Positions 10,855-20,524 of a DNA stretch of 32,000 bases are shown in pieces. The DNA comes from Desulfocapsa sulfexigens DSM 10523 (GTDB lineage: Bacteria > Desulfobacterota > Desulfobulbia > Desulfobulbales > Desulfocapsaceae). A program made the position numbers and the translations under genes. How positions within the stretch are numbered: the first letter of the stretch is position 1; each line of letters opens with the position of its first letter. The stretch spans positions 3,300,001-3,332,000 of the forward strand of contig NC_020304.1 in assembly GCF_000341395.1 (NCBI RefSeq), written 5' to 3'. A model generated the notes under the pieces. That model did not search any database. It was not told where the DNA came from and saw only the letters and a list, made by a program, of their open reading frames with translations.

Positions 10855-11403
10855 CGTCGTTCCTCCGTTATTTTGATTCCATTACAGTCTCCAGACAAAA
10901 TCGCATCTCCTTATTAAGGTATCGATAAATCGTGGTTTGTCCATTAAAACAACCTGAAACGAAAAAAAACAGTCCACCGCGTAGCGGCTTCGTCCAACTA
11001 AGTTTTTTAATAAAAAAGGCTTGTTCTCTTGGAATGCTTTTCTGCTGAACGTAAGAATCTGTTTAACTGTTTCAATGGCCCGAAACCCGAATTAAGGAAT
11101 TAGGTTGGGGGGCAAGCAACTCTTCTGCCATGTCATGCGATACCTGCTGTATCGAGATATCAGTAAGCACAATTCTGTGTGCCAAGATATTATTAAAGTC
11201 GTTCGCTATCCCGTCAGCAACCTGAGTTCAGTGACATCTAGACAGAAGAAATCAATTTGCTCGACAACCATGCCCTGGCTGAGGAAGAACAAATTCATGT
11301 AACGCCTGAATTGATAAAGAAATTTGCTGTTCCCTTGCGGTGTGTCATCGACTATCTGTCATATCGTGAAAAAGAACATCTCAGGCGAGTCGAACAATAC
11401 AGC

Positions 11404-12761
11404 CTAACACTCGATACCCAGATCCTTAAGTTTTTTCCAAAGAACCTTTCTGCTGATACCAAGTTTGTCGGCAGCTGCAATTTTTTTTCCGTCCGTCTCA
11501 TCAAGAGTCTTAAGGATTCTCTGTCGTTCGTAACATTTAACCCCCTCATCCAAAGACAGGTCTTCGGTAATACAAGGAAGATCTTCGCCCCCCCCCTACA
11601 TTCCGAAGGCAGGTGTGTCACATATATATGACTTCCGGTAGAGAGAAGAACTGCTCTCTCTATGGCATTCTTGAGTTCCCTCACATTCCCCGGATAGTCA
11701 TAGGCCAGAAGCCTTTTATAGGCATCTGGAGAAATATCCAGCCCTTTTTTTCTGTACTTTGTGGAATAAATTTTAAGAAAATGCTCAGCAAGGGCGGTTA
11801 TGTCTTCGCCCCGCTCACGTAACGGCGGCAAATGGATGGGGACAACATTGATCCTGTAAAACAGATCCTCTCTGAACGTCCGTTCGCTAATAGCTTTTTT
11901 CAGATCCTTGGCCGTGGCAAAAATTGTCCGTACATCTATCTTGATACTGGTATTGCTCCCTAATCTGGTGAGTTCATGTTCTTCAAGCACTCTGAGAAGC
12001 TTTGCCTGCAGAGTGATGGGCATCTCCCCAATCTCATCAAAAAAAATAGTTCCTCCATCCGCCACTTCGAATTTACCCTTTTTCGACTGGACAGCACCGG
12101 TGAAAGCACCTTTTTCGTAACCAAAGAGTTCAGATTCAAGAAGATCTTCAGGGATAGCAGCACAATTAATCTTGAGAAAAGTCTTGTCTTTACGAAGGCT
12201 CAATCTGTGGAGAGCGCTGGCCACTAGTTCCTTACCTGTACCACTTTCTCCCTGGATACGAACCGGGACATCGGTTGGGGCAACGGTGGCCAAGCGATCA
12301 AATACGGCCTTAATGGCCGAGCTTTCTCCAATAAACTCCTCAGACTGACTCTTTTCTCGGACGGTTTCACGGAGCTGATCATTTTCAAGCTGGAGTTGCC
12401 TGTATCTGAAATACCGGTCCACAACAATAAGAAGAGTGTCGTTACTAAAGGGTTTACTCAGGTAGTCGAAGGCTCCTTTTTTTATGGCAGACACTGCAGT
12501 ATCTACCTCTGGAAAACCAGTAATGATGATAACACCCGTATCAGGACAAATTTTCATGGATTCAGTAAGTATCTCCATGCCGCTCATCCCTGGGAGCCTG
12601 AAGTCTGTAATAATTAGGTCAAAGTTATGTTGCTGTATAGCTTTTAGCCCCTCTATGCCATCTTCACAGGCAGTCACCTCGTAGCCGTGTCCGCTGAGAG
12701 AGTGACTGACTCCAAGCCGCATGGAGAGTTCGTCTTCTATGAGGAGAATATTTCGTTTCAT
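11404..12761 (-). CDS. sigma54-dependent (NtrC-family) response regulator, frameshifted at a C9/G9 homopolymer (11588-11596) between the AAA+ domain and the Fis-type HTH
   Basis: - Receiver domain: LLIEDE...LIITDFRLPGMSG.
- AAA+ domain: Walker A GESGTGKE and the sigma54-contact loop GAFTGA.
- After the G9 run, the track ORF (to 11352) reads nonsense.
- The adjacent frame reads EDLPCITEDLSLDEGVKCYERQRILKTLDETDGKKIAAADKLGISRKVLWKKLKDLGIEC and ends with a stop at 11404-11406. That is a typical Fis-type HTH tail.
- Ten (or seven) G residues would restore the reading frame. Confidence 0.85.
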
Positions 12762-14239
12762 GTGTTCTCAGGCTCGCTGAGGGGAAGACTTATGATGAAT
12801 TTTGCACCCTGGCCTTCCTCTGATTCAGCGTGAATACGTCCCCCATGTTGTTCAATGATAGATTTACAAACTGCCAGACCAAGCCCTGTTCCCTTGCCGG
12901 GGTCCTTTGTGGTGAAAAAAGGGTCAAAAATCCTTGGCAGTACCTCGGGATCTATCCCGGGGCCAGTATCAGCTATGCTGAGAAAACAATCCTCTTCATC
13001 CCTCGTCAGATCCAGAGAAAGAGTTCCTCCCATGGCCATGGCATGGATCGCATTAATGATAATATTAAGGAACACCTGTTCAATCTTAGCCGGATCCACG
13101 GGAACCAACGGCATGTCTTCGCAGGATTCCCGATGCACTGTAATCTTCTGTTTGATAAGAAAAGTATCTACTAATTTAAAGCAATTATCAACAATTTCAC
13201 AAATGGAAGAAGGTACGATATCAATTGGTGTTTTTCTTGAAAAATCAAGGAGTCCCTGAACCGTATTTTGTATTTTATGAAGCCCGGAGTTGATAACTTC
13301 TATATGGGTCTTCCGAGACTCCTCATCCATGGAATCTTTGGCGAAATTATTAAAGCATAGGATCACTCCGCCAAGGGGATTATTTATTTCATGAGCCACC
13401 CCGGCCGCGAGATTGCCGACGGTAGCCATTTTATCTGTCTGACAGATAAGATCCATGGTTTTCACTTTTTCTCTGTCTGCCTGCTGCAGCTTACTGATCA
13501 TCCAGGAAAAACTGGCTTGCAACCTGCCGATCTCATCTTTGCGTTGCTCAGGAATAGAATACTGGATATCCAGATTCCCTTTTTCTGTTATCAGATCCAT
13601 GGTATTGGCCAGATTGATCAAGGGAGTTGCAAAAGCCCTACCAGCAATGCCAATAACAACGAGGGCTCCTAAAATCATCAATGACACCATGGAAAGAATC
13701 TCATTTCGCAGGGTACGGACCCCTTCATTTACTTCCTCTAAGGAAAAACCAATCCGACATACCCCCCAATTCTTGGTACTTATCTTCAGGGGCGCCACCA
13801 CATCAATCATATCGATTCCCTGAGAGTTTTTAAATTGCTGTATCGCTATTTCCATAGCCTGCAAAGACTCCGTCGTGACCGGATCAGTATATATTTTCCC
13901 ATACTCCCTTATGTCGCTATGAGAAAGCACTTTACCGTGTGGATCAAGAACAACCAGGTAGAGAAGGCGTTTTTCTTTACGGATAATATCTGAGACATAA
14001 TAGTCAAGATAATCGGTAAGGCCTACATTATCAACAAGGCCCAGTTCCTTATATACAAGAGCATTTGTAAAGATTACTCCTGATATTTCAGCAATTATCT
14101 TTGCCTGGTGAATTGTATCCTCGGTATAGAGTTTCTTTTCACGACTGATAATCAGATAACCAAAGATACCCGCAAAAAGAAAGATACAGAGCGAGGCGAT
14201 AACAATAAACTTCCCCTGAACGCCTTGAAAAAATTTCAT
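12758..14239 (-). CDS. sensor histidine kinase: two TM helices flanking a ~150-aa periplasmic domain, then HAMP, HisKA and HATPase_c
   Basis: 493 aa. TM1 is IVIASLCIFLFAGIFGYLII and TM2 is MVSLMILGALVVIGIAG. The H-box is AAGVAHEINNPL. The N-, G1- and G2-box regions read IINAIHAM, DTGPGI and GTGLGLAVC. ATGA overlaps occur at both ends (14236-14239 and 12758-12761). Confidence 0.9.
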   Translation of the reverse strand: MKFFQGVQGKFIVIASLCIFLFAGIFGYLIISREKKLYTEDTIHQAKIIAEISGVIFTNALVYKELGLVDNVGLTDYLDYYVSDIIRKEKRLLYLVVLDPHGKVLSHSDIREYGKIYTDPVTTESLQAMEIAIQQFKNSQGIDMIDVVAPLKISTKNWGVCRIGFSLEEVNEGVRTLRNEILSMVSLMILGALVVIGIAGRAFATPLINLANTMDLITEKGNLDIQYSIPEQRKDEIGRLQASFSWMISKLQQADREKVKTMDLICQTDKMATVGNLAAGVAHEINNPLGGVILCFNNFAKDSMDEESRKTHIEVINSGLHKIQNTVQGLLDFSRKTPIDIVPSSICEIVDNCFKLVDTFLIKQKITVHRESCEDMPLVPVDPAKIEQVFLNIIINAIHAMAMGGTLSLDLTRDEEDCFLSIADTGPGIDPEVLPRIFDPFFTTKDPGKGTGLGLAVCKSIIEQHGGRIHAESEEGQGAKFIISLPLSEPENT

Positions 14240-15141
14240 TTTTCACTCTCAATACTTATGCCCTGTTTTTGCAAATACCAAATCATTTGTCTGACAGGAT
14301 CATACCTGGAATCATCAACTCTCATAAAACCATATCGTATATTCACATCCCACGTATCCATCATGGCTCTTTGTTTTGGATTTAGATAATCAAGATCGAG
14401 AAGGACTTCTTCAAGAGAGCGTATCAACGCTGAATCCAAGTCGGGTCGAATGACAAGTAAAAAACCCGGAAGGGGGTCGGTTTGGCCGATAATTTTAATC
14501 CCCTTCCCCCGGTACTTTCTGGCAACAGAATCAAGCACGACACCCGCATCATAATTTCCTCTAAGAATCTCTCTAGCCACCGAATCGTGATAACTGAGAT
14601 TTTCATAGGTACTAAAATCCTGGAGACCGATCTTTTCATTGGCATACAGATGGTACAGGGGCGCTAGATTTCCTGACGTGGAGTGGTGCGAGGCAAAGGC
14701 AAAGCTCTTTCCCTTGAGGTTCCGAAGTTTACTTATCTCAGCGTTCCCCTCTCGTGCTATAAAGGTTCCTTGGTAAAACGGTTTTTGTTCAGAGTTCAGG
14801 GCAGCGAGAAAGGGCAGGCCACAGGAAGTACTCGCGGCCTCAATATAGGTTAGCCCGCCCAGAAGAGCAATATCAATACTCCCATCGCAAAGAAGCCTGA
14901 TGATACTTGGATAATCCTGGGTGATTTTTAGTTCAAAATCATAGGGGGTTGATTTACTCAAAAAATCGACAAATGGCTGGTATTGTCTGTACATAACCAG
15001 TGGATGGTACAGTGTGATAACCCCGAGGCGAACAACTGGTGACATACGACCCTGATCCGAGGCAGCAGCTTCAAGGTCTGAAAAGAGAACAGGCTGAATA
15101 ATGCAGGAAAACAAAACAATAATGGCACAATAGCGCAACAT
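14236..15141 (-). CDS. periplasmic substrate-binding protein, PhnD/phosphonate-ABC-type (PBP) family; candidate ligand sensor partner of the adjacent kinase
   Basis: The mature part (VRLGVITLYHP...YQPFVDFLS...DIALLGGLTYIEA...GKSFAFASHHSTSGNLAP) fits the PhnD-like fold pattern. The probable start is ATG at 15141 (MLRYCAIIVLFSCIIQPVLF signal peptide) rather than the track start at 15198. Its stop overlaps the kinase start (ATGA). No ABC permease or ATPase lies next to it. Confidence 0.72.
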   Translation of the reverse strand: MLRYCAIIVLFSCIIQPVLFSDLEAAASDQGRMSPVVRLGVITLYHPLVMYRQYQPFVDFLSKSTPYDFELKITQDYPSIIRLLCDGSIDIALLGGLTYIEAASTSCGLPFLAALNSEQKPFYQGTFIAREGNAEISKLRNLKGKSFAFASHHSTSGNLAPLYHLYANEKIGLQDFSTYENLSYHDSVAREILRGNYDAGVVLDSVARKYRGKGIKIIGQTDPLPGFLLVIRPDLDSALIRSLEEVLLDLDYLNPKQRAMMDTWDVNIRYGFMRVDDSRYDPVRQMIWYLQKQGISIESEK

Positions 15142-15433
15142 GGTGGCATTTTCTCCCTGAAAAGTGTGATGGTGGACTATATGAGTTATGGAAAACAATA
15201 ATCATCCATCCTGCTTGTCCTTTCGGAGTCTGCGCTTACCTGCCCATTTTATGCACTGTGGCAACAGTTACATCCCCCTGCTTTACGCCCATTGCCACAC
15301 CTTGAGAACAAACAAAAAACTTACACAGGTAAGCGAGGAACGAGACTCCGATAGTGGACAATTATTTTTCCCATCGCCCTGTGATTTTACAGATACCCAA
15401 TCATTAAAACAGCTATACAGATAAAACAGGATA

Positions 15434-16132
15434 TCACATTTTTTTGTTCCATGAAGAAAACATACGCATCTCATACTGAAAAAATTTATTAGCCATCTCC
15501 GCCAGTAAAGAAAAATAGGTTTTTGGCTTCCTCTTCTTGACATCAGCCAGAAATTGATGCATCCACTTTCCAGGATGGTCAATAAAAAATCGGCACTGTT
15601 CATCTTGAGAAAAGGATCCCGACTCAATGGCCTTTTCGATCAGACAGGCCATAAAGTCGAGTTCAAGAGCAATATGATCGGGCAGCAAATAGGAATGCTG
15701 AGGATCCACAGTAAAGCCATATTGTTCATACTGCTCGCCTACACGCCGAGCAGATTGTCCCATAATAGTATCTTCCAGATACACGGATTCGTAAGGGGAA
15801 ATCCTGTTTGTATTGGGACTATTGATAAAGAGCGCAGTATGGTCACAGCAGAGCTCATTAAAATCCAGGGAAGAAGACATGTCAGCTAAAACTTCTGTCT
15901 CCTCTCTTACATCGAGGCACAGAACCTCTGACGCCTCTCCTAAAACTCCAGGGAGTTCGCGTGTAAAGGTAGTCCAGTCAATGTCACCTGGATAAAGATA
16001 GGCGAGGCTTAACATCTTGTAGATGGCATGCCTTGCCAGATGCAGCTGCTCTGTATCTCTGCCCTGCTCCTGACTAAAGGCAAGAATCCCAACAGAGCCA
16101 GCGTTACTTTCGGTCTCGGCTGTAACTTTCAT
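15434..16132 (-). CDS. TorD/DmsD-family redox-enzyme maturation chaperone
   Basis: 232 aa with motifs typical of the TorD/NarJ family: YKMLSLAYLYP, HTALFINSPN...ISPYESVYL, and LPDHIALELDFMACL. It is the last gene of the molybdoenzyme operon. Confidence 0.8.
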   Translation of the reverse strand: MKVTAETESNAGSVGILAFSQEQGRDTEQLHLARHAIYKMLSLAYLYPGDIDWTTFTRELPGVLGEASEVLCLDVREETEVLADMSSSLDFNELCCDHTALFINSPNTNRISPYESVYLEDTIMGQSARRVGEQYEQYGFTVDPQHSYLLPDHIALELDFMACLIEKAIESGSFSQDEQCRFFIDHPGKWMHQFLADVKKRKPKTYFSLLAEMANKFFQYEMRMFSSWNKKM

Positions 16133-16150
16133 TATCCCTTATACTCCCAC

Positions 16151-16828
16151 TTATTGTTCATTCTGTTTGATTTTTTCATACCAGAGAGGATGATGAGACT
16201 TAACTTCTTCCTCATTAAGCTCACCGGTACCAAACATAGCCTTGAAACCGGCCCTGTTTAACGGATGAATACCAAAATACATATGCCCCAGAAGAGTCGG
16301 AAGTAAAAGGGCAAAACCGATATCGTGAAGATTCCTGGCAAGTGTCAGCGTTGCCACTGAAAACGACCCACGAAACCAAAGAACGAATCCCGAAAAGGCC
16401 AGCATGGCAATGCAGACAATAAACACATAGGCTGCAATCTTCTGACCTGCATTATATTTCCCCTGCCTGGCGTGTTTAAAATCAATATAACTGGTCTTCA
16501 GTCCTCCTATTCCGGCAGCCCCCGATTCAGGCCAGATATGCCATTGAGCAATCTGCAGCAACTGGGTGACAGCAAAAGGGAGACTGAAAAGCAGAAAAAG
16601 CATGGCCGCCACTCTGTGTATGATGCGGCAGACCTGAATACCAGCGGTCAGGGCATCACCATTCTGGCTACTGATAAAATCAACGGGCACACCGAAGCAA
16701 TACGCAATCCAATGAAAATAGTGAGAAAGTATTGGTAAGCCTGTCAGGATAAAAAAGAACATCAGGATGATGATTGATTTATGATAAAACATCTGAAACG
16801 GGGTAAACGCTGTGATCTTTTTACTCAT
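16151..16828 (-). CDS. membrane di-haem cytochrome b subunit (FdnI/PhsC-like, PF01292-type)
   Basis: It has at least four TM helices with conserved His residues (FYHKSIIILMFF..., RIIHRVAAMLFLL, NLHDIGFALLLPTLLGHMYFGIHP). The probable start is ATG at 16828 (MSKKITAF...), preceded by GGAGGA. This start overlaps the Fe-S gene end by 8 nt. The track start at 16903 would lie inside the upstream gene. Confidence 0.78.
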   Translation of the reverse strand: MSKKITAFTPFQMFYHKSIIILMFFFILTGLPILSHYFHWIAYCFGVPVDFISSQNGDALTAGIQVCRIIHRVAAMLFLLFSLPFAVTQLLQIAQWHIWPESGAAGIGGLKTSYIDFKHARQGKYNAGQKIAAYVFIVCIAMLAFSGFVLWFRGSFSVATLTLARNLHDIGFALLLPTLLGHMYFGIHPLNRAGFKAMFGTGELNEEEVKSHHPLWYEKIKQNEQ

Positions 16829-17636
16829 GGCTGTCCTCCTTCTCTTGTGCAGAGAGTACTTCTTTACGATTTGCCAGCCAGTAGAGAAAATGGGCACCGG
16901 CACCCAGAGCTACAGCTGCTGTTGCTCCAATTCCAATGGCCTTAGTTGTCTGGCGTATACCCATGCTGCTGACTATAGGTTTTTTGGGTAATCCATATTT
17001 CTCCATTTCTTCGGCTGCAACTATTGTCATCCAACCGGTCTTCCCAACATAGTCGTTTATCTTATCAGCACCGTAAACGATATACTCTTTGCCAAACTGT
17101 TCACTATAGCGTTTGGCTCGTTTTTTCGCCTCTGCAACCACCTCCTCTCTGGAACCACTTATCAGAGCATTGGCAATGCAGGAACTGACACAAGCTGGTT
17201 TAAGGTCCGACTCCACCCGGTCGTAACACATTATGCATTTGTATGAAGCGTTTGTCGCCTTATCATAAACGGGAACATCAAAGGGGCAGGCTTCCTGACA
17301 GGTGCGGCAGCCCACACAGAGGTCCTGATTGATAACCACTTGACCACCCGGTCTGCGTTCAATCGCTTGGGACGGGCAGTATGTGGCACAGGGAGAATTC
17401 TCGCAATGCATGCAGTGGTGCAGCTCGGTGATCCGATAACTTTCGGGATATTTCCCATATTCCCTCTGCACAGGCTGCAGGTAATTCAGTTGCGGCAATG
17501 ACTTGTTCACGCCATTTTCCAGGGCTGTTGTCCCGTTTCTCTGCAACCGTAAACGATTCTCCACACTGCAGCTCACCACACAGGTGAAACAGCGCACACA
17601 TGCCTGTGAATCATAACACATTGAATAGGTACTCAT
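16821..17636 (-). CDS. 4Fe-4S ferredoxin-type electron-transfer subunit with a C-terminal TM anchor (FdnH/DmsB-like)
   Basis: 271 aa with four Cys clusters (CVRCFTCVVSC, CMHCENSPCATYCP, CVGCRTCQEACP, CIMCYDRV...CVSSC). It has a C-terminal hydrophobic helix (IGIGATAAVALGAGAHFLYWL), as in formate dehydrogenase-N beta subunits. Confidence 0.88.
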   Translation of the reverse strand: MSTYSMCYDSQACVRCFTCVVSCSVENRLRLQRNGTTALENGVNKSLPQLNYLQPVQREYGKYPESYRITELHHCMHCENSPCATYCPSQAIERRPGGQVVINQDLCVGCRTCQEACPFDVPVYDKATNASYKCIMCYDRVESDLKPACVSSCIANALISGSREEVVAEAKKRAKRYSEQFGKEYIVYGADKINDYVGKTGWMTIVAAEEMEKYGLPKKPIVSSMGIRQTTKAIGIGATAAVALGAGAHFLYWLANRKEVLSAQEKEDSHE

Positions 17637-20185
17637 TATATCTTCCTCATTTTGATGACAAAATCATGCGCCGCATGTCCGCCGACCAGGGGAGCGTGGT
17701 GATAGGGTGCGGAGTGATTCGGATTAAAGCCTGTCTTGGGCGCATTGCTGTAGAACTTGTTCAGATTCTTAAAAGCGCCGGGACCTGTACCATAGTAACT
17801 AAACATGGCGTCGGGGTGGACTAGTTCACTTAAAACAACCCTGGCCGTCTGTTCCAATGTGTTGTCTGGATTTCGTATGGATACCAGATCGCCATCGGCA
17901 AGCCTGAGAGACTTCCCCTTGGCCTTATTAATAAAAACAGCATCCCAGGAAATGGATTCACCGACATTGGCAAGCAGCCTGTTGTCCTTGGTCTGCTGGC
18001 CGGTAAAGGAGTTGAGCGGCGCAAATCCTGTAATGGGAATAAACTCATCTTGAGCCAGTTTGTCTCTGGTGGTCATCCAATTAGCAGGTTGCCAGACTGG
18101 CAGCGGACTTGCCACCAAAGCGTTACTGTCTCCTTTTGCCTCAAGTTCTGCGTACTCACTGGCAAGGAAGGTACTGAATATCTCCAACTTATGGGTCGGT
18201 GTTTTGGCTTTTGTTTTTGGAATCGGTGCTTTACCGTTCCAGATTCCATGTTGTTTCAAGTAGTCAACGGTGATTTTTTTCTTCTCATCGGCAGAGATTC
18301 CTTTGAGTCCTGCAAGCTGGGTTTCCCAGAGCAATTCAATACCACCATCTTCATAGGGTTTGAAATGAGTTGCGTATTCTTCGGCAGTTAAAAGCCTACG
18401 TGCCAGTTCCAAACTGATCCAGTAAGGATCCTTAGCATCAAAAAGAGGGTCAATGGCCTTCATGTTGATGGTCACACCAGGTACTTCAGACTTATATTTG
18501 CTGTTAATGGCCTCGTCACGTTCAACAAAGGTGGCATCCGGCAGGATGACGTCGGCATAAAGTGTCGTCTCATTGAAAAAGGGGGATATACAGAGGGTGA
18601 ATTCCAGCTTTTTCAAAGCCTCAACAATTTCGGTTCCTCCTGCTGATCCACCAAGCAGATTTGCACCATTAAAGACCATTGCCTTGATAGGGTAAGGCTT
18701 GTCAGTCAATAACGTCTCAACAGCCCTGTGACGATAGTAGTGGTCGTTGCCGAATCGGAAATTCGGATCATGCTTCATATAATATTTACTGATGGCTGCT
18801 GCTTTGGCCTTTGGCGGATGAATCAGTTTGCCGGTCTTGGGAGAATGGTTCCAGATGATTCCACCTTCCTGGCCAAATGCCCCGATAAGGGCGTTCATCA
18901 TGCCGATAACCTGAATCCCTTTAAAGGAATTAAAATAGCGTTCACTGCGATAGGTCGGATCGATAAAGGCATGGGGCCTGTTCTGCTCCAGTTCCTGGGC
19001 AACCTTTCGAATCTCGCCCGCCGGGACATCACTCTTCTTTTCGGCCCATTCCGGTGTATAGTTTTTAAGTTCCTGGGCTATCCTGTCCAGGGCAGTTACG
19101 GCCTTAAAGGTCTTGTCTGTAAACGTAACCTCATAGGTGCCGTTTAAAGCAGGATTTTTAGCGTCACTGGCAAATCGTACCTCCCCAGCAGCCCTATCAA
19201 AGACAAGATAGTCAAGGATTTTGACTTTTTTCCCCTTCTCCTCTTTCTCGATTTCCCTGACTCCGGCAGGCTGCAGAGTCTTGGCATCTACCAGCATGGG
19301 GGCATTGGTATGTTTGATGAGATATTCTGGCTCGTATGATTTGTTTTTTATGAGTTCATGAAAGAGACCGAGCATAAAGGCGAGATCAGATCCAGGCTTT
19401 ATTGGCAGCCAGTGAACATTGTCCTCACCTGCCTCAGAAGGTTTGCGCGGATCAACCACAGTCAACCTGAGTCCGTCTCGTTTCCCTTTACAAAAGTTCA
19501 TGGCCCATGGATAGCAGACCAGGCCGCCAGCTGGATTGCGCCCGGCAAGCACTCCGTACTTGGCTTTGGCAAAATTAATACTGACCTTGCTCGGGCTGCA
19601 GCCAGGCAGCCCTTTGCTGAAAGGCCCGCAAACCACTCCAAGACCAACGGCTCGGGAATTGGCCCAGCAGGTATCTGCGTATCCGGGAAAGTTGGGCGTA
19701 CCGTATACCTTGAAGACTTCATTATCCACCCCAGGTGCGCCGTGAAAACGAACGGCAACGGCCACCGCTTCGGGGGTTCCCTGGTCCCGATAGATTTTCA
19801 GCTTTGAGGCTACAAGATCCAGGGCTTCCGGCCAACTGGCCCTGCGGAACTTCCCTTCGCCTCTTTCACCTACCCGAATAAGTGGCGATTGAATACGGTT
19901 CGGATTATAAACCATACCTGCTACAGCCACAGATCGTCCACAGACCCCCGGCAAGACAGACTGAGGATTTGCTTCAATCCCTACGAGACGGCCATCCACC
20001 ACCCTGGCAAGGCCCGGACACTTCTGGGCACACATCCGACAATTAACAGGTACATGCTTTTCCATGCCGTAGGATGGCAGCTTCTCTGCTTGAGCGGGCT
20101 TGACATTTAATCCTGTGGCAACCAACGGACCAGCAAGTGCTAAGCCACCAAGCTTCAGAAAATCTCTTCTGTTTGTTTTTTTCAT
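17636..20185 (-). CDS. Tat-exported molybdopterin (bis-MGD) oxidoreductase catalytic subunit, Psr/Phs/Arr clade-like; substrate unknown
   Basis: 849 aa. The twin-arginine leader reads MKKTNRRDFLKLGGLALAG...AQA. The N-terminal FS0 cluster motif is CRMCAQKCPG...(25 aa)...CGRS. The candidate Mo-ligand region is GTPNFPGYADTCWANSRAVG, with Cys and no in-frame TGA. The stop overlaps the Fe-S gene start (TAATG). Confidence 0.88.
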   Translation of the reverse strand: MKKTNRRDFLKLGGLALAGPLVATGLNVKPAQAEKLPSYGMEKHVPVNCRMCAQKCPGLARVVDGRLVGIEANPQSVLPGVCGRSVAVAGMVYNPNRIQSPLIRVGERGEGKFRRASWPEALDLVASKLKIYRDQGTPEAVAVAVRFHGAPGVDNEVFKVYGTPNFPGYADTCWANSRAVGLGVVCGPFSKGLPGCSPSKVSINFAKAKYGVLAGRNPAGGLVCYPWAMNFCKGKRDGLRLTVVDPRKPSEAGEDNVHWLPIKPGSDLAFMLGLFHELIKNKSYEPEYLIKHTNAPMLVDAKTLQPAGVREIEKEEKGKKVKILDYLVFDRAAGEVRFASDAKNPALNGTYEVTFTDKTFKAVTALDRIAQELKNYTPEWAEKKSDVPAGEIRKVAQELEQNRPHAFIDPTYRSERYFNSFKGIQVIGMMNALIGAFGQEGGIIWNHSPKTGKLIHPPKAKAAAISKYYMKHDPNFRFGNDHYYRHRAVETLLTDKPYPIKAMVFNGANLLGGSAGGTEIVEALKKLEFTLCISPFFNETTLYADVILPDATFVERDEAINSKYKSEVPGVTINMKAIDPLFDAKDPYWISLELARRLLTAEEYATHFKPYEDGGIELLWETQLAGLKGISADEKKKITVDYLKQHGIWNGKAPIPKTKAKTPTHKLEIFSTFLASEYAELEAKGDSNALVASPLPVWQPANWMTTRDKLAQDEFIPITGFAPLNSFTGQQTKDNRLLANVGESISWDAVFINKAKGKSLRLADGDLVSIRNPDNTLEQTARVVLSELVHPDAMFSYYGTGPGAFKNLNKFYSNAPKTGFNPNHSAPYHHAPLVGGHAAHDFVIKMRKI

Positions 20186-20325
20186 ACCTCTACTCTCCTA
20201 AAGAATCATCGTAAGATCACACAAAATCGTATCTATACTTGACTAGACACATGATAAATACTCCATAAAACCGAGACTACATGGCTGATTTGGAGCAATA
20301 CAGTGATGTATATAGAGAAGAACAA

Positions 20326-20341
20326 GGCAATAAGCAGGCCA
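20326..20341 (-). promoter_or_regulatory. candidate sigma54 (-24/-12) promoter: TGGCCTGCTTATTGCC
   Basis: The reverse complement of 20326-20341 is TGGCCT-GCTTA-TTGCC. It matches TGGC-N7-TTGC with the canonical GG-N10-GC spacing. It points toward the molybdoenzyme ATG at 20185 and lies about 140 nt upstream of it. A sigma54 activator is encoded in the same locus. Confidence 0.5.
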
Positions 20342-20456: not shown

Positions 20457-20524
20457 ATGTTCCTTACTGGGAACATGAATGCTCCCGACAAGGAACATAC
20501 ATATTTGGGGGCTGCCTGGCAGCC
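20457..20524 (-). promoter_or_regulatory. candidate upstream activator sites: dyad ATGTTCC-N6-GGAACAT, an extra GGAACAT half-site, and the palindrome GGCTGCCTGGCAGCC
   Basis: The perfect 7-bp inverted repeat spans 20457-20463 / 20470-20476. A third GGAACAT lies at 20492-20498. The 15-nt perfect palindrome lies at 20510-20524. All sit 115-185 nt upstream of the putative -24 element, the usual distance for bacterial enhancer-binding proteins. Confidence 0.3.

Follow-up and report, generated by a model that had tools for sequence, protein, structure and literature searches.

A molybdoenzyme operon of a rare Psr/Phs-related clade and its adjoining PhnD-type sensor genes in Desulfocapsa sulfexigens, with a tentative link to thiosulfate

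Desulfocapsa sulfexigens SB164P1 is a marine bacterium specialised in the disproportionation of sulfur, thiosulfate, and sulfite (PMC3739170). We analysed 32,000 nucleotides of the DSM 10523 genome (contig NC_020304.1, positions 3,300,001 to 3,332,000; below, the window, with positions counted from its first letter), taken from an assembly of 4,023,512 bp in two contigs. The window carries a seven-gene block made up of a molybdoenzyme operon, ABCD, and the genes X, S, and R (together XSR) for a binding protein, a histidine kinase, and a sigma54 activator. ABCD and XSR are probably one regulatory and metabolic unit, and its novelty is that XSR genes of an apparently non-arsenic family are coupled here to enzymes of a rare clade related to Psr and Phs. 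The genes and features are as follows.

17636..20185, minus strand: A, catalytic subunit of the bis-molybdopterin guanine dinucleotide (bis-MGD) type, exported by twin-arginine translocation (Tat), 849 amino acids (aa); Pfam Molybdopterin, 102 bits
16821..17636, minus strand: B, four-cluster ferredoxin subunit, 271 aa, with a C-terminal transmembrane (TM) anchor; FdnH/HybA/HmcB-like
16151..16828, minus strand: C, FdnI-like dihaem cytochrome b, 225 aa, four TM helices; Pfam Ni_hydr_CYTB, PF01292
15434..16132, minus strand: D, maturation chaperone of the TorD/NarJ family, 232 aa; Pfam Nitrate_red_del, PF02613
14236..15141, minus strand: X, secreted solute-binding protein of the PhnD fold, 301 aa, with a signal peptide; Pfam Phosphonate-bd, 183 bits
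12758..14239, minus strand: S, membrane histidine kinase, 493 aa, with a periplasmic sCache_3_2 domain and with HAMP, HisKA, and HATPase domains
11404..12761, minus strand: R, NtrC-type sigma54 activator with receiver, AAA+, and Fis-type helix-turn-helix (HTH) domains, interrupted by a frameshift
11588-11596, minus strand: G9 homopolymer at which the frame of R breaks
20327..20341, minus strand: sigma54 (-24/-12) promoter TGGCCTGCTTATTGC, found by pattern match, ~140 nt upstream of the A start codon
20458..20475, minus strand: probable enhancer dyad (upstream activating sequence) for R, TGTTCC-N6-GGAACA, ~115 nt upstream of the promoter
20492-20498: further ATGTTCC half-site

An earlier note on this DNA had listed seven co-directional genes in the order A-B-C-D then X-S-R, and all of them were found in the map of open reading frames and the domain scans, together with the ATGA overlaps it described between X and S and between S and R. 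The gap between D and X is also present, at a measured length of 292 nt in place of the 290 nt given before. B and C overlap by 8 nt when C starts at the ATG at 16828, as is the case in relatives; a GTG start at 16903 was rejected in favour of this ATG, with the relatives as a guide. The start of X was set to the ATG at 15141, which gives 301 aa with a signal peptide, and D passes the gathering score of PF02613 (79.1 bits; gathering score 22.2).

A opens with a twin-arginine leader (RRDFLK) and carries an FS0 [4Fe-4S] motif, Cys49-x2-Cys52-x3-Cys56-x25-Cys82. Its closest solved relative is the polysulfide reductase PsrA of Thermus thermophilus (229 bits, compared with 87 bits for the ArrA structure). 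Cys173 of A, within ADTCWANS, is the predicted Mo ligand and aligns with PsrA Cys173, which we take to be the Mo ligand of PsrA. In the same alignment PsrA His145 is matched by a histidine and Arg332 by a tyrosine, and A carries an insertion of ~70 residues at positions 293-366. The best NCBIfam match is the PhsA model, at 299.5 bits and below its cut-off of 694. Scores against the models for ArrA (107 bits, cut-off 1600), TtrA (79 bits, cut-off 1750), AioA (21.9 bits, cut-off 359), and the alpha subunit of formate dehydrogenase N (Fdh-N; TIGR01553, 65 bits, cut-off 814) are lower still, and A has Cys, not selenocysteine. Seven other relatives with lengths of 818-883 aa, of which four belong to the A clade and three to neighbouring groups, score 259-397 bits with the PhsA model, while ordinary Psr/Phs-like proteins of 730-740 aa reach 520-570 bits.

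A maximum-likelihood tree of forty-six sequences recovers the A clade with support of 100/99. PsrA falls in a separate clade (100/98) with the 730-740-aa Psr/Phs-like proteins, two paralogs from this genome among them. Judged by sequence, then, A is a member of a small and rare clade that lies beside the PsrA/PhsA group and outside it. The clade was present in one of 400 other sampled genomes of the same phylum, ~5 full-length representatives of clusters at 50 per cent identity exceed 400 bits out of 1.84 billion sequences, and a single-protein search for related loci returned two close relatives. The suggestion that the enzyme stands outside the characterised families therefore holds, in that A passes no curated cut-off and is apart from PsrA in a tree with one partial reference. 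Fourteen control genomes yielded no loci, and tblastn against plasmids matched only oxidoreductases with generic names.

B contains four ferredoxin Cys motifs holding sixteen Cys and a TM helix at residues 233-251. The histidines of C (His16, His71, His168, and His182) are at positions equivalent to those of FdnI, and an alignment with E. coli FdnI retains equivalents of all three haem-ligand residues compared, His18, His155, and His169. The KYNAGQK motif of C aligns with FdnI residues 108-114, the position of the quinone site. Thus the features of an Fdh-N-type membrane module are present, namely a TM-anchored beta subunit and a four-helix cytochrome b with haem histidines and the motif of a quinone site on the cytoplasmic side. 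Both B and C remain below equivalog cut-offs, including, for C, those of the FdnI families.

The earlier note had called this combination of subunits a mosaic, a description that we abandon. A trio of A, B (~258-271 aa), and a PF01292 cytochrome (~222-240 aa) was found in ten of the eleven loci read: the window, three loci numbered L003, L006, and L007 in our set, a fourth numbered L039, and the loci of Dissulfuribacter thermophilus, Sulfurospirillum arcachonense, Deferribacter autotrophicus, Thermosulfurimonas marina, and Limisalsivibrio acetivorans. Only one locus (L004) is without C. Because the trio recurs across four phyla (Desulfobacterota, Thermodesulfobacteriota, Deferribacterota, and Campylobacterota), it is a stable family-wide architecture and not a local mosaic; PhsABC, too, pairs its catalytic subunit with a dihaem b (PMC12949373). 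Within this genome, A is the sole Psr/Phs-related enzyme that adjoins a PF01292 cytochrome b. Phs and Psr are distinguished solely by the membrane subunit, which in PhsC is a dihaem b (PMC12949373), and C is likewise a dihaem cytochrome b and not an NrfD protein. The design is therefore Phs-like, with its five membrane helices split in the style of Fdh-N, four in C and one in B. Just upstream of the ABCD-XSR block of L003 (2629-6339) there is also a cluster of a TorD gene, a 739-aa molybdoenzyme gene, and an iron-sulfur (FeS) protein gene that is similar to the published MOLY cluster; in D. sulfexigens the ortholog of this cluster lies elsewhere in the genome, at ~3.11 Mb.

The promoter core upstream of A, AATGGCC.G.TT.TTGC, is invariant in four aligned relatives, in which the intergenic region is otherwise 67 per cent identical. 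The TGTTCC-N6-GGAACA dyad is invariant in the same four relatives and occurs once in the 4.02 Mb genome, which also contains rpoN. D. thermophilus and T. marina likewise have sigma54 promoters ahead of A, and the copies of T. marina, L004, and Limisalsivibrio adjoin sigma54 regulators with other sensors. As in the Aio, Arx, and Arr systems, X, S, and R stand in this order beside a molybdoenzyme operon with a sigma54 promoter. The genome has one X ortholog, and every other match is at most 30 per cent identical. XSR is probably the regulator of ABCD, since the promoter and dyad are conserved upstream of A, the dyad is unique, and X has a single ortholog. The earlier note had allowed that XSR might serve an unrelated locus; nothing indicates another target, as far as sequence can tell.

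A further TGGC-N7-TTGC match is located between R and the aldo/keto reductase gene (11116-11130, minus strand), and such matches number seven in the window compared with 1.4 expected. This reductase gene and a gene for an M48/TPR peptidase flank the block and are unrelated to it. A scan of the gap between D and X for sigma70 promoters and terminators yielded nothing usable. The gap contains a perfect 8-bp inverted repeat at 15257-15299 (TGTGGCAA ... TTGCCACA, arms 27 nt apart), which may act as an operator or form an RNA hairpin.

In sequence, X is nearest to the phosphite-binding protein PtxB (73 bits) and then to ArrX (50 bits); against a model of putative selenate-binding proteins it scores 87 bits. 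The earlier note had proposed that X be modelled and its anion pocket inspected. The predicted model has a mean pLDDT of 90, and its best fold match is the closed PtxB-phosphite structure (target TM-score 0.86), with AioX at rank 33. In PtxB and PhnD, three oxygens are held by two Tyr, an STS motif, and a His (PMC5700983). This cradle is kept in X as Y77, Y123, S154-T155-S156, and H185. Across 120 members of the X family, Tyr77, Ser154, Thr155, and His185 are present in every protein, Tyr123 in 104, and Ser156 in 107. Cys106 of AioX defines the arsenic subfamily (PMC5908839), and a Cys of the AioX type is absent from the predicted pocket: the residue of X that aligns with the ArrX Cys is Gly95, and the position of AioX Cys106 holds Gly in 116/120, Ala in 4/120, and Cys in 0/120. 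The position of the capping Tyr (Y208 in Te_PtxB) is Phe227 in X, and in the family it is Leu (89/120) or Phe (31/120). We also checked a His-His pair before the STS motif for conservation in the X family; it was not conserved and was not used.

Given the retained three-oxygen residues and the Leu or Phe cap, we infer that X binds an XO3-R anion whose fourth position points towards an apolar cap. The pocket would be compatible with thiosulfate or sulfite. We take X to be the partner of a sensor, not part of a transporter: downstream of it are the kinase and regulator genes, and no genes for a permease or ATPase of the ATP-binding cassette type.

The order of an X ortholog, a Cache kinase, and a sigma54 regulator was found in six of six contexts (L003, L007, L027, L028, L029, and L030). 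XSR adjoins a PF03601 membrane protein and a Usp protein in both L028 and L029, and L028 also has a DsrE gene farther upstream. The XSR of L030 (15979-20891, a metagenome-assembled genome (MAG) of Nitrospirota) is ~50 per cent identical and lies between rhodanese and YeeE/YedE genes on one side and genes for a cytochrome c, an FeS protein, an NrfD protein, and a 975-aa molybdoenzyme on the other. The enzymes that the X sensor family serves therefore differ between lineages. On contig 18 of D. thermophilus (L023, 7339-13553), 3-9 kb upstream of ABC, there is a second X-like protein whose immediate partner is a sigma54 regulator, no kinase lying between the two; this pair is preceded by a PF03601 membrane protein and a Usp protein and followed by an anion porin of the OprO/P type. 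The genes DITHS69_1982-1990 were considered as the D. thermophilus cluster and rejected, as the locus tags do not fit.

R is not the single open frame that the earlier note took it to be, the break in the G9 run having been overlooked. The receiver and AAA+ domains read through to ...SECRGG, and the Fis-type HTH, KIAAADKLGISRKVLWKKLKDLGIEC followed by the stop, is in another frame that ends at 11404. This out-of-frame HTH is perfectly conserved. An intact R ortholog of 452 aa is present in a Desulfocapsa MAG (L007), and a G10 run here would restore that length. 454 chemistry miscalls long homopolymers, and for this reason a sequencing artefact is the likelier explanation of the frameshift. The D. 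sulfexigens genome was sequenced with 454 Titanium and Sanger reads (PMC3739170).

The hosts of A relatives include disproportionators of sulfur, namely Dissulfuribacter thermophilus and Thermosulfurimonas marina, as well as a sulfur reducer, Deferribacter autotrophicus. The rhodanese, YeeE, and DsrE genes and the other Mo enzymes near XSR elsewhere also count towards a link to sulfur. In Desulfolithobacter dissulfuricans GF1, an A ortholog of 849 aa (82 per cent identical) is located 15 kb upstream of the GF1 XSR, and by position and length we assign it to GF1_03980. Hashimoto et al. (PMC9751629) recorded GF1_03980 in thiosulfate-disproportionating cells only, and it was absent from cells grown with hydrogen and sulfate. 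GF1_04120, which is seen only in thiosulfate disproportionation, was tried as X and rejected; it is a 196-aa SBP_bac_11 protein, and X is GF1_04160. GF1_04160 was not found among the accessible entries of the proteome supplement of PMC9751629. Immediately upstream of the GF1 ortholog (L037, 644-10692) is a Ttr-type B-C(NrfD)-A operon with TorD-like and DUF302 genes, preceded by divergent genes for a dCache kinase and a sigma54 regulator. This Ttr-type operon is the one given by Hashimoto et al. as the most induced by thiosulfate disproportionation (PMC9751629).

We tentatively read the block as encoding a menaquinone-coupled enzyme that is induced through XSR and sigma54 and acts on a sulfur oxyanion, thiosulfate being the likeliest, a reading to which we give a little less than an even chance. 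X would bind a periplasmic sulfur oxyanion of the XO3 type, most likely thiosulfate, and signal to the Cache-domain kinase S; S would phosphorylate R, and R would bind the unique dyad and activate the sigma54 promoter of ABCD. The product is, by its architecture, a periplasm-facing, Cys-ligated bis-MGD enzyme, wired through the anchored four-cluster subunit to the FdnI-type dihaem cytochrome b, with the quinone site of C on the cytoplasmic side. The potential of thiosulfate cleavage is far below that of menaquinol, and the membrane potential would push electrons outward to thiosulfate. Electron flow driven by the membrane potential has been proposed for Salmonella PhsABC (Stoffels 2012, as cited in PMC12949373). 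During disproportionation, electrons of sulfite oxidation via Apr/Qmo would enter the quinone pool and would have to reach thiosulfate, a gap that ABC could fill. With a dihaem b, a quinone site on the cytoplasmic side, and an outward push on the electrons, the enzyme would cleave thiosulfate reductively to sulfite and sulfide.

A broader and more doubtful proposal is that XSR is the first non-arsenic three-component sensor of the PhnD type, belonging to a family that counts at least 120 proteins in Desulfobacterota and Nitrospirota and senses thiosulfate or sulfite. It would switch on a new clade of redox-loop molybdoenzymes that supplies the missing quinone-linked step of disproportionation, either as a thiosulfate reductase that the proton-motive force (pmf) drives or as the source of the sulfite oxidoreductase activity that D. 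sulfexigens is reported to have.

Several points weigh against the reading of the block as a thiosulfate-linked unit. The nearest solved relatives of X bind phosphite or phosphonate, not sulfur anions, and the sole characterised reference in our tree is T. thermophilus PsrA, as a partial sequence. R is frameshifted in the deposited sequence. Most members of the A clade outside Desulfobacterota are without XSR, and one of these hosts, Deferribacter autotrophicus, is a sulfur reducer (PMC6896113). The spectral counts of GF1_03980 (1, 5, and 10; PMC9751629) are a weak signal. The GF1 operon is moreover decaying (L037, 15025-18312): B is frameshifted, its two parts lying in different frames, and an insertion sequence with a DDE transposase gene, 1.8 kb, interrupts C. 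With B and C broken, the enzyme is not essential for thiosulfate disproportionation in GF1, so that in this strain its regulation is informative and the enzyme itself dispensable.

The main rival to a thiosulfate-cleaving enzyme is a sulfite dehydrogenase. The complex would then work as a sulfite:menaquinone oxidoreductase in the Fdh-N direction, oxidising periplasmic sulfite and reducing menaquinone on the cytoplasmic side with generation of a pmf, and X would sense sulfite. Phosphite, like sulfite, is a pyramidal XO3 anion, and X is nearest to PtxB-phosphite in sequence and in fold; the module of B and C is Fdh-N-like down to the haem ligands and quinone-site motif, and a Psr-related sulfite dehydrogenase has a precedent in SoeABC. 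A sulfite oxidoreductase activity has been reported in D. sulfexigens (Frederiksen and Finster 2003, cited in PMC3739170), and in the related strain GF1 a gene for such an enzyme was not found (PMC9751629). However, the closest characterised relatives, Psr and Phs, are reductases, the damage to the GF1 operon counts here too, and no sequence feature separates the oxidising from the reducing direction; we regard this alternative as unlikely. Similarly improbable, in our estimate, is a Psr-like reductase of polysulfide, elemental sulfur, or tetrathionate with another membrane anchor, to which XSR would be a lineage-specific addition. It agrees with the occurrence of the trio without XSR at Campylobacterota and Deferribacterota loci, with the rhodanese gene that adjoins the L004 copy, with the Ttr-type operon that the GF1 cluster abuts, and with the ability of one Psr homologue to reduce tetrathionate (PMC12949373). 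It sits poorly with a membrane subunit that is not NrfD/PsrC, with the separation of A from PsrA in the tree, and with a TtrA score of 79 bits against a cut-off of 1750. The conserved pocket of X, too, would not fit polysulfide, because polysulfide is not an XO3 anion.

The remaining two alternatives are less probable again. Respiration of a non-sulfur oxyanion (arsenate/arsenite, selenite/selenate, tellurite, antimonate, or phosphite) in the manner of AioXSR, ArxXSR, or ArrXSR would account for the X-S-R order and sigma54 control, which are as in the arsenic systems (PMC5908839), and for the 87 bits of X against the selenate-binding model; a SLAC1/TehA-like gene is also nearby in GF1. The enzyme scores (ArrA, 107 bits against 1600; AioA, 22 against 359), the X family position at which AioX has Cys106 and which is never Cys (Gly 116/120, Ala 4/120), and the detection of the ortholog in cultures given thiosulfate alone (PMC9751629) make this reading very unlikely. 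Induction by a specific periplasmic oxyanion, as the earlier note proposed, is plausible because the XO3-binding residues of X are retained. Its equal weighting of S, Se, As, and P oxyanions does not survive the missing AioX Cys, the ArrA score, and the proteomic tie of the ortholog to thiosulfate disproportionation, and we narrow the candidates to sulfur anions. Finally, the system could be silent or decaying here, with a real frameshift in R, loss of the HTH, and an ABCD operon that is no longer inducible. The G9 run does break the frame of R and the orthologous operon of GF1 is visibly decaying, but the remaining genes of the block are intact, the out-of-frame HTH is perfectly conserved, and the genome is 454-derived (PMC3739170), so the homopolymer errors considered above may apply; we think there is little chance that the system is defunct.

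The enzymes of sulfur disproportionation are largely unassigned, and this locus makes the missing step testable. The molybdoenzymes of disproportionation are stated in recent papers to be indistinguishable by sequence (PMC12998232, PMC13490349), and a dedicated soluble sensor offers a handle beyond sequence, as it could serve to name the inducer and probably the substrate. The Fdh-N-type membrane module indicates coupling to the membrane potential, which is the central energetic problem of thiosulfate disproportionation. A paper of 2018 described the AioX orthologues as the only proteins of the PhnD family with a role in signalling (PMC5908839). If X does sense a sulfur anion, the XSR design would not be an arsenic speciality.

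Among known systems, PhsABC of Salmonella enterica shares with ABC a Tat-exported, Cys-ligated catalytic subunit of the Psr/Phs type, a four-cluster FeS subunit, and a dihaem cytochrome b subunit. It differs in that A is ~90 residues longer and scores 299.5 bits against the PhsA cut-off of 694, B here has its own TM anchor, C has four TM helices where five are predicted for PhsC, and a TorD-like chaperone and the XSR sensor are attached. PsrABC (T. thermophilus, 2VPW; Wolinella succinogenes) provides the best solved relative of A, with Cys173 and His145 aligned, yet its membrane subunit is of the haem-free NrfD type, and A belongs to a separate clade, with an insertion of ~70 residues and Tyr in place of Arg332. 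The resemblance to FdnGHI of E. coli (1KQF) is in the TM-anchored beta subunit, the four-helix dihaem cytochrome b with its haem histidines and KYNAGQK motif, and the redox-loop geometry; A is not a formate dehydrogenase, however, and C is below the FdnI family cut-offs. AioXSR, ArxXSR, and ArrXSR likewise have a PhnD-fold protein, a histidine kinase, and a response regulator beside a molybdoenzyme operon with a sigma54 promoter upstream, and AioR and ArxR are sigma54 AAA+ activators like R. In contrast to these, X lacks Cys106 and is nearer to PtxB/PhnD, the enzyme is not Aio, Arx, or Arr, and the host is a sulfur disproportionator. The PtxB and PhnD binding proteins have the same fold as X and the same Tyr-Tyr-Ser-Thr-Ser-His cradle for three oxygens, whereas they occur with genes for ATP-binding cassette transporters, and the capping Tyr208 (Te_PtxB numbering) that gives phosphite specificity is Leu or Phe in the X family.

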